Source: Kiritimatiellia bacterium | Lineage (GTDB): Bacteria > Verrucomicrobiota > Kiritimatiellia > JAAZAB01 | Length of the DNA: 64,000 bases | Direction: 5' to 3' | Assembly (NCBI GenBank): GCA_028715905.1 | Contig: JAQUQV010000002.1 | Location: forward strand, 15,979 to 79,978 | In this document: positions 6,541 to 13,951 of the stretch, one piece after another | How positions within the stretch are numbered: position 1 is the stretch's first letter | How the letters are laid out: every line of letters begins with the position of its first letter | The notes under the pieces: model-generated | Databases searched by the model: none | What the model was told of the DNA's origin: nothing | What the model saw: the letters and a program-made list of their open reading frames with translations, nothing else | Translations under genes and position numbers: made by a program

Positions 6541-7419
6541 ATGGATGACAACGCTTCAGACAAGAAAAGGGACGATTCGGAAATTGAATCCCTGAAAAAA
6601 ACGACGCGCATATTCCTTGACGACGCCCTGCTCGCCAAGGCTGCGCCTAAAAAGACAACCACCTCCATCGCCGGCCAGGCCGATGACAAACAATCCACCG
6701 GGCCGATCATGGGCATCCCCACTCACAAGGTGTCGCCGATTCCCCAGACCATCCGCCTGAAACGGCCTTCAACTTCGCCGATTGTCATCAGTCCGCCTGA
6801 TATTACCACCGCCCCGACCGTGGTTAAAACCGCCCGCTCCAAGCCCCCGACCGCGCCGGTCGGCGAAAACGCCACCGTCATCAGGCCGCCGTCCCCGCAA
6901 AGGCCGCTCAAGGAAACATCGCGGATAATACTGGAGCTCGGTCCGCAGGCGGCCGAAAGCCCTAAAAAAACAAGCCCCATTCCCGCCATATCGCCGCTGG
7001 AGCCGACTCCCGGCCCGAAAACCATCCGCCTCAAACGGCCGTCAACCATCATTGCCGAGGCGGCCGGCGAAATGCAGGCGGCCAAAAAGTCCGAAACGGC
7101 AAAAATTGACCTGCCGAAAGAGGCGGAATATCTGACGCCGGCCACCCAGCGTAAAACGATCAAAATAAAGCGGACCGACCGGAACATTATCGCGCGCACC
7201 GTGTCCGTAACCCGCCAGGCGGAGGCCAGGCCGCCAGCGAAAGCCGCCGCGCCCGAAAAAAAACCCGCCCCGGAAATATCCGCCCCCGAGGAACCTCTGC
7301 CGGTCTTTTCAATCCTGGCGGGCCTGACGGCGGTTTGTCTTGTCCTGCTGGCATACCTGCTGACCGCCCAGGCCTTCGGTCCGGAACTTATTTTGCCCGT
7401 TCCTTCGGGTCTGTTTTAA
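6541..7419 (+). CDS. Proline/threonine-rich low-complexity protein with internal TIRLKRPST repeats and a C-terminal TM anchor
   Basis: The repeated motif TIRLKRPST (twice) plus TIKIKRT, a P/T/A-rich composition, and a hydrophobic C-terminal helix FSILAGLTAVCLVLLAYLL. Confidence 0.55.
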   Translation: MDDNASDKKRDDSEIESLKKTTRIFLDDALLAKAAPKKTTTSIAGQADDKQSTGPIMGIPTHKVSPIPQTIRLKRPSTSPIVISPPDITTAPTVVKTARSKPPTAPVGENATVIRPPSPQRPLKETSRIILELGPQAAESPKKTSPIPAISPLEPTPGPKTIRLKRPSTIIAEAAGEMQAAKKSETAKIDLPKEAEYLTPATQRKTIKIKRTDRNIIARTVSVTRQAEARPPAKAAAPEKKPAPEISAPEEPLPVFSILAGLTAVCLVLLAYLLTAQAFGPELILPVPSGLF

Positions 7420-9327: not shown

Positions 9328-9356
9328 TTGACATGATCCCAAAAATATCATAGTAT
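9328..9356 (+). promoter_or_regulatory. Near-consensus sigma70 promoter (TTGACA-N17-TAGTAT) driving the 9518/10216 cassette
   Basis: An exact TTGACA, a 17-bp spacer and TAGTAT sit in an AT-rich gap, about 160 nt upstream of the 9518 ATG. Confidence 0.55.
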
Positions 9357-9410
9357 TTTTTTATTGCCTGAATTTTGCGCAGAAGTTTAAATAAGACCGG
9401 CGGATCGCCA

Positions 9411-9446
9411 GCCGGGAAAGTTTTGGATGGCGGCGCTGCCGCCTTA
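9411..9446 (+). repeat. 36-bp conserved motif copy 1 (GCCGGGAAAnTTTyGGATGGCGGC-N2-3-GCCGCCTT)
   Basis: Near-identical copies at 19418..19455 and 38195..38228; all contain a GGCGGC/GCCGCC hairpin. Confidence 0.5.
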
Positions 9447-9517
9447 GGGTATTATCGGCAGGCGGCTTTCCGCCGCGCGGAAGCATACGAAAAACTCAAA
9501 CAAAGGAACAACCAGAC

Positions 9518-10186
9518 ATGAAAACAGGAAAAATATCAGTCGCATTAATGGCCGCGGTATTGATGCTCTCTGTCTATTGTTTTGCGGCGCCGGAGGCTCC
9601 CAAAGAAGTTACACTGGCCGCCGAGCAGGGGCTGCGGCCGTTTTTGAGTGAAATCGCGGATACGCCAGAGCAATTCGGCTTTACCGCCGGCGATGATTTG
9701 AACGCGGCCTCTCTCGGCGCCCCGTTCCAGCTCCATACCATCCCCCCTTCCGCCCTGGAAAAATATCAGGCCGGCATGACGGTGGCCTCCATGGTTACTC
9801 CGACCACGACCTGGTGGTTTCCCGTCCTGATCGCGGGCGAGCCCCGCGCCATGCTGCTCGTTGACCGGCTTGACGGCCGCTGGGAGGCGGTTTCGCTCGG
9901 CCACGCGGGCGTGGCGCAGGAATTGAGCGCATTCTGCCGGCAATGGAAAGCCGCGCAGGGATACCATCCGATGCTGATCGCCGTTTTCCAGGCAAAGCAA
10001 TTCCTGGTTTCCGTCCCGGAAAAGGACGCTTACAATCTTACGACTCTGACCATAAAGAACGCCCCGGAAATGGGCGCCAAACAGACGCCGGCCGTTGCCG
10101 ATTATGCCACGCTGGGAACGATTGATGACGCAATGAACCAGTTGAAACCGGTTGTGCGGGATGCCCTTAAAGGGTCTGACCAATAA
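9518..10186 (+). CDS. Secreted hypothetical protein with a signal peptide; first gene of the cassette
   Basis: N-terminal signal peptide MKTGKISVALMAAVLMLSVYCFA; an AAGGAA RBS; no recognisable domain. Confidence 0.6.
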   Translation: MKTGKISVALMAAVLMLSVYCFAAPEAPKEVTLAAEQGLRPFLSEIADTPEQFGFTAGDDLNAASLGAPFQLHTIPPSALEKYQAGMTVASMVTPTTTWWFPVLIAGEPRAMLLVDRLDGRWEAVSLGHAGVAQELSAFCRQWKAAQGYHPMLIAVFQAKQFLVSVPEKDAYNLTTLTIKNAPEMGAKQTPAVADYATLGTIDDAMNQLKPVVRDALKGSDQ

Positions 10187-10215
10187 TGCAATTCACAATA
10201 AGGAGGAAACGCATC

Positions 10216-11199
10216 ATGAATATTCGCCATTGCACGCCAAAGTTCATAGCCGTTGCCGTGATCAGCATCTTGACGGCAACGGGCGCCTGCCCGGGGGCCA
10301 AGCTGAACGTTCCCCAGTATAAACAGGAAAAGGACCAGTGGTGCTGGGACGCCGGCTCCCAGATGGTGCTGGCGTTCAAAGGGTATTCATATTCCCAGAC
10401 GGCCATCGCAAATTGGGCGGTCGGCGGCCGAAACATACCCAATTATCTTTACGGTTCCACTGATTCCAGCATGCACGGCTGCGACGAAATTCTCAAGCAT
10501 TTCGGCAATATCAGCAGTTCCGGCTCCGCGTCCCGGATGTCGCTGAACAATCTGAACACCGAAATAAACAACTCGCGCCCCGTCCTGATCCGCTATGGAT
10601 GGAACAGCGGCGGCGGACACATCGCCGTATTACGCGGGACTTCCGGCAGTTCGGTTTATGTGAATGACCCCTGGTACGGTCAGAGCCTGGTAAGCTATAA
10701 CTATGTGTGCCAGGCATACAACCAGGGTTCCTGGACGCATACCCTGAAACTCACCGGCGGCAGCAGCAGTTATTACCAATACGCCATGTATTATTACGGG
10801 CTTTACGGGCAATACTGGTCTGCCTATCAATCCACGGGCAGTTACTACTACCTGTCCTATGCCTATTACTATTACGCCTATGCCATCGGATATTATTACC
10901 TGTATTGCGGCGATTCTTCTTCCGCCAACTATTATTACAATTATTACATGCAGTACGCGCAGTATTATTACAACTTATATTACTACGCGTATTATTACTC
11001 GTATTATCACAATTATTACTCGTATTATTACAATTACTACCTCCGGACCGGCAGTTACGTGGCTCTGGCTTATGCCTATTATTATTACGCCTACGTTGAA
11101 TATTGTTACTACATGTATTACGGCAACAGTTCGTACGCCAATTACCTGTATAATTACTACATGTACTGGGCAAATTACGTCTACAACCACTATTGCTGA
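10216..11199 (+). CDS. Putative lipoprotein: a C39-like (papain-fold) cysteine peptidase domain fused to an extremely Tyr-rich tandem-repeat C-terminal region
   Basis: An AGGAGG RBS lies 9 nt before the ATG at 10216. The signal peptide ends in a lipobox-like TGAC. The QWCWDAGSQMVL...GGHIAVLRG...VNDPWYG arrangement resembles Peptidase_C39_2. Residues from about 175 to the end are roughly 45 percent Tyr, with two homologous units of about 47 aa (YAYYYYAY...G-SS-ANY-YNYYM). Confidence 0.65.
   Translation: MNIRHCTPKFIAVAVISILTATGACPGAKLNVPQYKQEKDQWCWDAGSQMVLAFKGYSYSQTAIANWAVGGRNIPNYLYGSTDSSMHGCDEILKHFGNISSSGSASRMSLNNLNTEINNSRPVLIRYGWNSGGGHIAVLRGTSGSSVYVNDPWYGQSLVSYNYVCQAYNQGSWTHTLKLTGGSSSYYQYAMYYYGLYGQYWSAYQSTGSYYYLSYAYYYYAYAIGYYYLYCGDSSSANYYYNYYMQYAQYYYNLYYYAYYYSYYHNYYSYYYNYYLRTGSYVALAYAYYYYAYVEYCYYMYYGNSSYANYLYNYYMYWANYVYNHYC
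10741..11190 (+). repeat. Coding low-complexity Tyr-codon (TAT/TAC) rich tandem repeat inside the 10216..11199 CDS
   Basis: Reiterated tattac/tattat codons with synonymous variation. The other two frames give I/T-rich and L-rich spurious ORFs. Confidence 0.6.
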
Positions 11200-11606
11200 A
11201 TAGTGCCGGCGAGAATGTAGGAGGCCGTGCCCATGGTGCCGCCAATCAGGACCGGCTGGCCCGTTGTCTGAAATTCCGGCAGCAGGGCCGGATTGCCCGG
11301 CCCGAGGGCGCGCGTGGCGCCTTTGCGGTGCACATAAAGCGTCTGTTTCCGGCCGCCGATTACATGCTCCTCAACGTGGCGGATATTGTGCGAAACATCA
11401 TAAAGGAGCGGCAGGTCCATTTTTCCGAAAATCATTTGAAATCCATCCCGGACCAGCTGGGTCAGAATCTGGCGGTTGGCAAGGGCGCAATTAACCGTCG
11501 CGCGCATTGCGCCCAGATAATTTTTTCCCTCCGCCGACTGCGCCGGCGCGCAGGCCAGTTCGCGGTCGGGCAGGCAAATGCCGTGCCGTCCCGCAGCTTT
11601 CAGCAT
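11190..11606 (-). pseudogene. rtcB: Truncated internal fragment of RNA-splicing ligase RtcB
   Basis: The segment LYDVSHNIRHVEEH...YVHRKGATRA...TGQPVLIGGTMGTASYILAG matches the RtcB core. The N-terminal 200-250 aa and the C-terminal His-nucleophile region are missing. The 3' end abuts or overlaps the Tyr-rich gene. Confidence 0.6.
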
Positions 11607-11657
11607 TGATTTTGAAAATTCGGCCGCGATCTGATGCTCATTTCCGCAGCCCGGCGC

Positions 11658-13047: not shown

Positions 13048-13605
13048 TCAGCGCCCGGAGCGCAAAGTTTTTCCGTCCGTCGCCGCCGCCGGGTCGGAAA
13101 CCGCGGGCGGGCGGATGTAAAAGACGGACGAAAACGACGGCAGGGCTTCGGCGTTCAACTCGTGCCTGGTGAAGGTTAAAACATTTGTGCCGTCTTCAAT
13201 CTGCAGCGGCGCCGACTTCAGCCGGCAGAGGTTGTTGGTTGCCAGCAATTCCGCCAGGTGCTGCTCGTTTTCCGCGCGGCGGGTGGCGGAAAAAATGCGT
13301 TCGGTTTCAAAACGGAAAATCCGGAGGGCGCGGGATTTCTGCTCAATTTTAAGGACGTTGATCTGGGAACCGAGCGCTGCCGAAACGGCAATAGCCACGA
13401 TTACCAGAGCGACCAGGATTTCAAGCAGAGTAAAGCCCGAAGGGCTGAAAACTGAAGGCTGAAGGCCGGAATTTTTACATTCAGGAACACTTTTCTGCCT
13501 TCTGCTTTCCGCCTTCCGTCTTTCCCTACAGGTCCGAGCTGGAGATATCGGCGGCGGTTCCGTCGCCGCCGGGCTCGCCGTCGCTGCCATAGGTAATGAT
13601 TTCAT
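13048..13605 (-). CDS. Prepilin-type pseudopilin (type II secretion minor pseudopilin-like); the start is uncertain
   Basis: Contains a GFTLLEILVALVIVAIAVSA prepilin N-methylation motif. There is no canonical start within 30 codons upstream of the G. The nearest in-frame ATGs would give a leader of more than 50 aa overlapping gspG. Confidence 0.45.
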   Translation of the reverse strand: MKSLPMAATASPAATEPPPISPARTCRERRKAESRRQKSVPECKNSGLQPSVFSPSGFTLLEILVALVIVAIAVSAALGSQINVLKIEQKSRALRIFRFETERIFSATRRAENEQHLAELLATNNLCRLKSAPLQIEDGTNVLTFTRHELNAEALPSFSSVFYIRPPAVSDPAAATDGKTLRSGR

Positions 13606-13951
13606 ATGGCTCCTGATTCCTTCCGGGGGAAAGATAAATGAAGTCATGTTTCCAGGGATCTTTTGGGAGGTTGACGCTTTCAAGGTAACCTTCGGCCGGG
13701 TATTTTTCGGGCGCGGGCGGCGCGGTGGGTTTGACGCAGAGCGCCTTCAGACCCTGCTCCTGGGTCGGATAACGGTTGTGTTCCATCCGATAAAGCTGGA
13801 GGGCGCTTTTGAAGGTTTTGATCTGCATGACGGCAGCCGTCACTTTGGCCTCGCCGGGGTGGCGCAGAACGCTCAAGCCCACGATCCCGGCCAGAATGGA
13901 AATGATCAGCACCACGACCAGGATTTCTATCAGGGTAAAACCATCACGCAT
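13526..13951 (-). CDS. gspG: Type II secretion major pseudopilin GspG-like
   Basis: MRDGFTLIEILVVVLIISILAGI prepilin motif with a short leader and GspG-like length (141 aa). Confidence 0.8.
   Translation of the reverse strand: MRDGFTLIEILVVVLIISILAGIVGLSVLRHPGEAKVTAAVMQIKTFKSALQLYRMEHNRYPTQEQGLKALCVKPTAPPAPEKYPAEGYLESVNLPKDPWKHDFIYLSPGRNQEPYEIITYGSDGEPGGDGTAADISSSDL

Follow-up and report, generated by a model that had tools for sequence, protein, structure and literature searches.

A papain-fold protease with a tyrosine-rich, predicted helical tail and its candidate separate pro-domain, encoded side by side in a Kiritimatiellia genome

We analyzed one locus (positions 9328-11199) in a window of 64,000 nucleotides (nt) of Kiritimatiellia DNA (contig JAQUQV010000002.1); coordinates are positions in this window unless another locus is named. 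Two genes lie here, one for a secreted protein that we call the partner and one for a papain-fold cysteine protease that ends in an extremely Tyr-rich tail. We suggest that they may form a split zymogen, in which the partner would act as the pro-domain of the protease. Both open reading frames (ORFs) were found where a preliminary description of this DNA, made from the letters alone, had placed them, and both proteins are recorded in NCBI for a Kiritimatiellae metagenome-assembled genome (MAG), on a contig of 126,939 bp. The two genes and their parts are as follows.

9518..10186, + strand: partner gene, 222 amino acids (aa), MDD5482184.1, a "hypothetical protein" in NCBI; called from the ORF and its homologues
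9518..9589, + strand: signal peptide of the partner, about aa 1-24, MKTGKISVALMAAVLMLSVYCFAA, as read from the sequence
10200..10207, + strand: strong Shine-Dalgarno sequence of the protease gene, AAGGAGGA, 8 nt 5' of the ATG at 10216
10216..11199, + strand: protease gene, 327 aa, MDD5482185.1, labeled "papain-like cysteine protease family protein" in NCBI; signal peptide, Peptidase_C70 domain, and Tyr-rich helical repeat tail
10216..10290, + strand: signal peptide of the protease, aa 1-25, with Cys25 in a PROSITE-like lipobox (ATGAC)
10300..10755, + strand: papain-fold catalytic domain, aa 29-180
10324-10326, 10342-10344, 10618-10620, and 10666-10668, + strand: codons of the catalytic set Q37, C43, H135, and D151, respectively, from the family alignment
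10756..11196, + strand: Tyr-rich tail, aa 181-327, 147 aa, 45.6% Tyr, 2% charged
10789..10980, + strand: tail repeat unit 1, aa 192-255; predicted helix A, STGS turn, helix B (AYAYYYYAYA...), GDSSS turn, and helix C (ANYYYNYYMQYAQYYY)
11002..11193, + strand: tail repeat unit 2, aa 263-326, built on the three-helix pattern of unit 1

Because only 29 nt separate the two genes, they are probably co-transcribed, and we regard them as probably one two-gene operon; no terminator-like site was found between them on the + strand. A longer version of the protease ORF, starting at 10186, was rejected, since homologues start with MNIRH, as the ORF from 10216 does.

A frameshift or sequencing error in the Tyr-rich stretch, named as a possible flaw in the preliminary description, would turn this protein into a misread non-coding region, a misassembly, or a decaying gene. 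Further frames of the TAT/TAC-rich DNA are indeed also open, and the gene adjoins a truncated rtcB. However, three independent Logan assemblies agree with the window (99.9% identical, gap-free) over both genes, the tail, and the downstream junction, and more than 40 homologues from other assemblies, at 40-65% identity, share the in-frame architecture with frame, length, and motifs kept. Synonymous sites are near saturated and Tyr is nevertheless conserved. Hence, the Tyr-rich stretch is not an assembly or frameshift artefact; that explanation is effectively refuted and, in our judgment, has next to no chance of being right.

Pfam returned a single match for the protease, to Peptidase_C70 (PF12385, AvrRpt2-like; E 4.6e-11, 43.2 bits versus a gathering cut-off of 19), which extends over aa 29-161 and profile positions 4-136 of 141. 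All three motifs (QWCWDAG, GGGHIAVLRG, and DPWYG) are there, and the 44 aligned family members share Q37, C43, H135, and D151 without exception, which bears out the Cys and His arrangement noticed at first reading. C43, H135, and D151 follow each other in papain order, while Q37, six residues N-terminal of the Cys, is the oxyanion-hole Gln. The domain had been described as C39-like. It is a papain-fold Cys/His domain, but Pfam assigns it to C70 and not to C39: the C39 profile (PF03412) gave no match in the window protease, and many homologues do match C39_2 (PF13529). Fold comparison puts the domain closest to staphopain (C47) and C39 domains, so that the mature domain is indeed staphopain-like. 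A published classification (PMC10318531) groups C47, C70, C39, and C39_2 closely, in one sub-cluster. Searches of the literature for C70 proteins other than effectors gave nothing relevant. The joining of a papain-fold domain to an extreme Tyr-rich tail stands as first described, and no characterized protein with the same fusion was found.

The catalytic Cys lies only ~16 residues beyond the signal peptide; hence, the protease has no pro-peptide in cis. Its earlier assignment as a lipoprotein is ambiguous: Cys25 fits the lipobox pattern, but only 20 of the 44 family members show this pattern, and some lack the Cys altogether. Judged from the sequence, cleavage by signal peptidase I just N-terminal of the conserved VLxVPQ would be equally possible. 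The hydrophobic N-terminus of the partner is kept in its 36 homologues, none of which has a lipobox pattern; confidence of the AlphaFold (AF2) model is low at this N-terminus.

The partner had been taken for an unrelated secreted protein. It does carry a signal peptide, but it is conserved, resembles pro-regions and cystatins, and accompanies the C70 domain, to which it is fused in Uabimicrobium. Several observations bear on this. First, the best structural match of its AF2 model is prostaphopain B, followed by cystatin-fold proteins that include cysteine-protease inhibitors; the prostaphopain B match was allotted to the proregion by exclusion. Second, we scanned one genome per species for linkage and obtained 80 non-duplicate loci with a C70 relative, from Verrucomicrobiota/Kiritimatiellia, Lentisphaerae, Desulfobacterales, Planctomycetota, Cloacimonadota, Elusimicrobiota, Fibrobacterota, Bacteroidota, Myxococcota, KSB1, Proteobacteria, and others. 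A recognisable partner homologue is present at 54 of the 80 loci, directly upstream on the same strand in 51, fused to the protease in two, and downstream in one. Where loci with a Tyr tail reach far enough, all have a partner homologue 26-62 nt upstream of the protease. Third, the two fusions are single ORFs in which a signal peptide and the partner domain are joined through ~20 aa of linker to the protease domain, right past which the ORF stops.

L029:3242-4456: partner-C70 fusion in Ca. Uabimicrobium amorphum
L037:3311-4456: partner-C70 fusion in Uabimicrobium sp. HlEnr_7

From the linkage scan and these fusions, we conclude that it is the catalytic domain rather than the tail that the partner accompanies, and that it does so in the position of a pro-domain. 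Relatives that have the partner and no Tyr tail carry RCC1, BACON, PKD, fn3, VWA, ricin-lectin, FG-GAP, or type IX secretion system (T9SS) sorting domains in its place. No member of the partner family can be recognized from existing profiles: Pfam and NCBIfam gave no match for the partner, and a Pfam scan of all 36 family members at E <= 10 found nothing relevant. The family is undescribed and unnamed in Pfam or NCBIfam. We also noted that the C-terminal domains of the protease vary widely across loci L021-L083, which span many phyla. Some genomes hold two copies of the Tyr-tail protease (L007 and L011 in MAG binchicken_co47_169; L019 and L020 in a Lentisphaerae MAG). No partner homologue was detected upstream of L019; its second copy, L020, has one.

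A secreted protein that accompanies a protease might also be its immunity protein. The protease would then be an exported antibacterial toxin, directed, for example, at the envelope, the partner would protect the periplasm of the producer, and the C-terminal domains would bind receptors. Periplasmic immunity proteins have signal peptides, as the partner does, and the module occurs in differing neighborhoods across genomes, each of the five other genomes that we inspected having the pair in a different setting with nothing in common beyond the pair. Yet a fusion in pro-domain order, as in the two Uabimicrobium genomes, is unexpected for an immunity protein, and the best structural match of the partner is a protease pro-region. 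Genes for type VI secretion, contact-dependent inhibition, or bacteriocin export were not found nearby, in the window or in the five genomes. Furthermore, the catalytic domain is the conserved part of these proteins, whereas polymorphic toxins vary at the toxin end. We therefore consider a toxin-immunity pair improbable.

The tail is as Tyr-rich as the initial estimate of about 45% suggested, and both Tyr codons are used: the last 162 aa of the protease contain 68 Tyr, encoded by 32 TAT and 36 TAC. Across all 44 family members, the tail measures 119-172 aa, of which Tyr accounts for 28-46% and charged residues for 2-12%, and the window protein is the extreme case. An internal alignment of aa 192-255 with aa 263-326 scored 209, compared to 115 +/- 8 for the shuffled sequence. 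The internal repeat proposed earlier is thus real, but its unit is ~64-70 aa with three predicted helices rather than ~47 aa. The family consensus of the unit reads YYxxYxxYYNLAxQYYNxY - STGS - YxxLAYAYYYYAYAxYYYYMY - GDSSS - ANxYYNYYMxYAxYYYxLY, and the turn motifs and Ala positions of the tail are conserved in the family. Tandem Repeats Finder detected only short arrays in the tail DNA, with periods of 9-21 nt. In a comparison with 13 homologous loci, the codon differs in 28-60% of aligned Tyr-Tyr columns, which is near saturation. Hence, Tyr is held by selection on the protein, and the earlier view that the tail is not a simple DNA repeat is sustained.

AF2 predicts five long helices in the tail (aa 185-207, 210-230, 234-278, 281-301, and 305-326). 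Averaged over 10 residues, the predicted local distance difference test (pLDDT) score is 71 for residues 181-190 and 81-97 for all that follows. A single continuous helix is modeled for helix C of unit 1 together with helix A of unit 2, so that the tail is predicted to consist of two three-helix units with a common long central helix. The periodicity of aromatic versus non-aromatic residues in segments A and C peaks at 92-104 degrees in three of four segments, and all four have an alpha index of 1.5-3.6; this helical periodicity supports helices independently of AF2. Segment B carries two Ala stripes (i, i+2, i+7, and i+9), which fit a central helix and fit beta structure too. A possible origin of the tail from TPR repeats, an impression given by 'WYNLA...GDxxxA...YY', was rejected (hhalign probability 0.3%, no Pfam match).

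The same helices could instead lie at the interface of the inner or outer membrane, where the tail would replace or add to the lipid anchor. The Wimley-White interfacial free energy is strongly favorable for every predicted helix (-8.5 to -18.4 kcal/mol), the charged fraction of the tail is minute, and the lipobox is dispensable in the family. On the other hand, the grand average of hydropathy (GRAVY) is -0.63, hence the helices are not transmembrane, the composition of the tail suits binding of glycans or aromatic compounds equally well, and stand-alone versions of the tail, described next, are plainly secreted. A membrane-interface anchor is a reading to which we give a small chance. More generally, these energies make association with a membrane or a hydrophobic surface one option for the tail, next to self-association and the binding of glycans or aromatic polymers.

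Searching 1.84 billion representative proteins with a profile of the tail yielded 10 matches; composition filters may hide some. The stand-alone secreted forms among them (P0061, P0117, and P0119-P0122) consist of two or three units behind a signal peptide and a linker. Two of them, P0117 and P0061, belong to a run of three consecutive stand-alone Tyr-rich genes on one metagenome contig, all without a protease domain.

L086:2-277: first gene of the run (partial)
L086:492-1157: second gene of the run
L086:1337-2128: third gene of the run

Meanwhile, the metagenome protein P0123 (204 aa) shows a third architecture, an NHL repeat followed by Tyr-rich units. Because stand-alone secreted proteins and an NHL-repeat fusion exist, we take the repeat to be an autonomous extracytoplasmic module. 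A sequence search of the PDB with a stand-alone Tyr-rich protein as query gave chance-level matches only, and literature searches on bacterial Tyr-rich proteins gave nothing relevant. The tail domain is undescribed, very rare, and lineage-specific.

The tail had also been thought prion-like or adhesive, a low-complexity region that would self-assemble into a surface matrix and might be cross-linked through dityrosine. Its extreme Tyr content and near absence of charge speak for this, as does the tandem array of stand-alone genes, an arrangement common for structural proteins; Tyr-rich cross-linked walls exist in eukaryotic parasites. Against it, the tail is modeled with high confidence as folded helices and not as a disordered chain, turn motifs and Ala positions are conserved, and Asn and Gln together make up only 10% of the tail. 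As for oxidative cross-linking, no peroxidase, laccase, or tyrosinase is conserved beside the module in five genomes, and several source MAGs come from anaerobic reactors according to their record titles, a setting in which oxidative chemistry would be less likely. The prion-like and cross-linking claims are therefore not borne out, and a self-assembling matrix of this kind appears to us a poor prospect.

We propose the following model for the locus. The partner would be exported by Sec, with a fold like that of the prostaphopain B proregion and of cystatins. It would bind the protease in the periplasm, where it may help folding, block the active-site cleft, or both, and it would later be released or degraded, thereby doing the job of the covalent pro-domain of prostaphopain. 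The protease, judging by its Gln/Cys/His/Asp set, would be an active clan-CA peptidase. The tail would be a targeting module peculiar to this lineage, one that keeps the protease attached to a surface or a polymer (cell envelope, glycan, or aromatic matter) or promotes self-association; we read it as a targeting or binding module because relatives with the same partner have binding or sorting domains there. We think it likely that the protease and a separate pro-domain are correctly identified. A binding role of the tail is a tentative proposal, in which we have less than even confidence. For the model as a whole, a two-gene split zymogen with a helical Tyr tail as targeting module, we put the chances slightly above even.

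Several points weigh against this model. The partner has no sequence-level likeness to any known pro-region or inhibitor family in Pfam or NCBIfam. Gene neighborhoods, which differ from genome to genome, offer no clue to function. As for the tail, its helical fold is predicted, and the 44 sequences behind the prediction are biased in composition; the periodicity of helix B is near 140-155 degrees and thus also fits beta structure, and a search for structural neighbors of the tail found only generic helical repeats.

If the model is true, a separate, co-transcribed, secreted pro-domain would be an unusual form of protease control outside the cytoplasm, and the staphopain pro-region architecture, so far staphylococcal, would extend to many environmental bacteria. 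A conserved domain of ~150 aa with 40-46% Tyr and nearly no charge tests ideas on which compositions can fold. Should the tail fold as predicted, it might be a useful binding or materials module, and the free secreted form of the repeat suggests a function of its own. A bolder version is that the Tyr repeat is a new kind of folded domain (three helices, ~70 aa, sticky toward glycans, aromatic or humic matter, membranes, or itself) and that the partner-protease pair is a widespread, so far unrecognized system in more than 10 phyla, with the pro-domain of a staphopain-like protease made as a separate secreted protein; we hold this combination to be rather unlikely.

The flanks of the pair contain two further features.

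9328..9356, + strand: candidate sigma-70-like promoter TTGACA-N17-TAGTAT, 10/12 matches, in the divergent intergenic region 161 nt upstream of the partner gene
11190..11657, - strand: rtcB remnant, Pfam RtcB profile positions 206-337 of 426, E 6.8e-44

The promoter that the preliminary description reported is there as a sequence, but such sites are no commoner than in shuffled DNA, with 4 promoter-like sites found in the region versus 3.1 expected from shuffles. It remains plausible as a promoter. Conservation of the promoter was considered and rejected: 13 homologous upstream regions hold sigma-70-like hexamers at varying distances, with no positional conservation. A riboswitch or leader RNA in the 160-nt 5' untranslated region was likewise rejected, as Rfam gave nothing meaningful (best E 0.23).

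Downstream, the decayed rtcB that had been noticed beside the pair is real. The remnant is convergent with the protease gene and overlaps its 3' end by 10 bp, and this junction is the same in the three other (Logan) assemblies. It is truncated at both ends, with ~200 N-terminal and ~100 C-terminal residues lost, and an open frame of 155 codons, free of internal stops, reaches from the stop codon of miaB to 11190. Because the frame is open despite the lost ends, the truncation may be recent. No further pieces of rtcB were found in the window. The nearest homologues of the fragment are partial proteins, 60-68% identical, from unrelated taxa. A MiaB-based scan of metagenome contigs recovered only relatives at <=46% identity, with neither rtcB nor the cassette nearby. 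An acquired cassette, as the preliminary description had it, may have been inserted into rtcB, but these searches yielded no relative close enough for a comparison. Just beyond miaB, positions 13048-13951 (- strand) hold two pseudopilin-like genes (type II secretion), with FTLIEILVV and FTLLEILVAL as N-terminal methylation motifs. On the other side of the locus, positions 6541-7419 (+ strand) encode a 292-aa protein rich in Pro, Thr, and Ala, in which 'TIRLKRPST'-type motifs recur and the C-terminal segment is hydrophobic.

We compared the pair with known systems. Prostaphopain B (the SspB zymogen, MEROPS C47; PDB 1x9y) is likewise a secreted papain-fold cysteine protease, and it has before the protease a domain of the pro-region fold that the partner model matches best. 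It differs in that the pro-region here usually has its own gene and its own signal peptide, being attached only in Uabimicrobium, and in that there is no likeness at the sequence level: the 36 partner members have no relevant Pfam match, and the protease matches C70 only. The staphopain-staphostatin operons of Staphylococcus also co-transcribe a regulator with the protease. Unlike those systems, the pair has no staphostatin-type cytoplasmic inhibitor, its protease has an extra C-terminal domain, and its organisms are Gram-negative environmental anaerobes.

AvrRpt2 (C70), a type III effector of Pseudomonas syringae and Erwinia amylovora, shares PF12385 and the same Cys/His/Asp arrangement. C70 proteases of the AvrRpt2 type are delivered by type III secretion and activated by a host cyclophilin. 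In contrast, the window protein belongs to an environmental Kiritimatiellia MAG and has a Sec signal peptide, a partner gene, and a Tyr-rich tail, and its protease domain is structurally nearer to C47 and C39 than to AvrRpt2. No type III secretion genes were seen near the pair in the window, and effector biology is unlikely for the window protease. The C39 domains of PCAT1, ComA, and LahT, together with C39_2, are linked to the family through the many homologues that match PF13529 and through the Gln six residues before the Cys. They differ from the window protease, which is not fused to an ABC transporter and lacks a PF03412 match.

Spi of Streptococcus is similar to the pro-segment of SpeB. 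Co-transcribed inhibitors of secreted papain-like proteases comprise Spi with SpeB, the staphostatins with staphopains, and Bfi and Bti in Bacteroides, where some inhibitors are periplasmic and encoded upstream of the protease (PMC3462683). The Spi-SpeB and Bfi/Bti-C10 pairs resemble the present one in combining a small co-transcribed protein with a secreted or lipoprotein papain-like protease whose activity, in their case, it controls. However, C10 proteases are a different family and keep a pro-peptide in cis, and their inhibitors are smaller than the partner, at ~116-138 aa, with a staphostatin-like beta structure. For the tail, the parallels are eukaryotic and synthetic. Apicomplexan oocyst wall proteins, diatom adhesive proteins, and designed Tyr-rich peptides share high Tyr and, for the proteins, an extracellular location. 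The eukaryotic structural proteins are mostly disordered or cross-linked and of far lower local Tyr density, whereas the tail of the window protein is bacterial and predicted to be a folded helical repeat with conserved Ala and turn positions.

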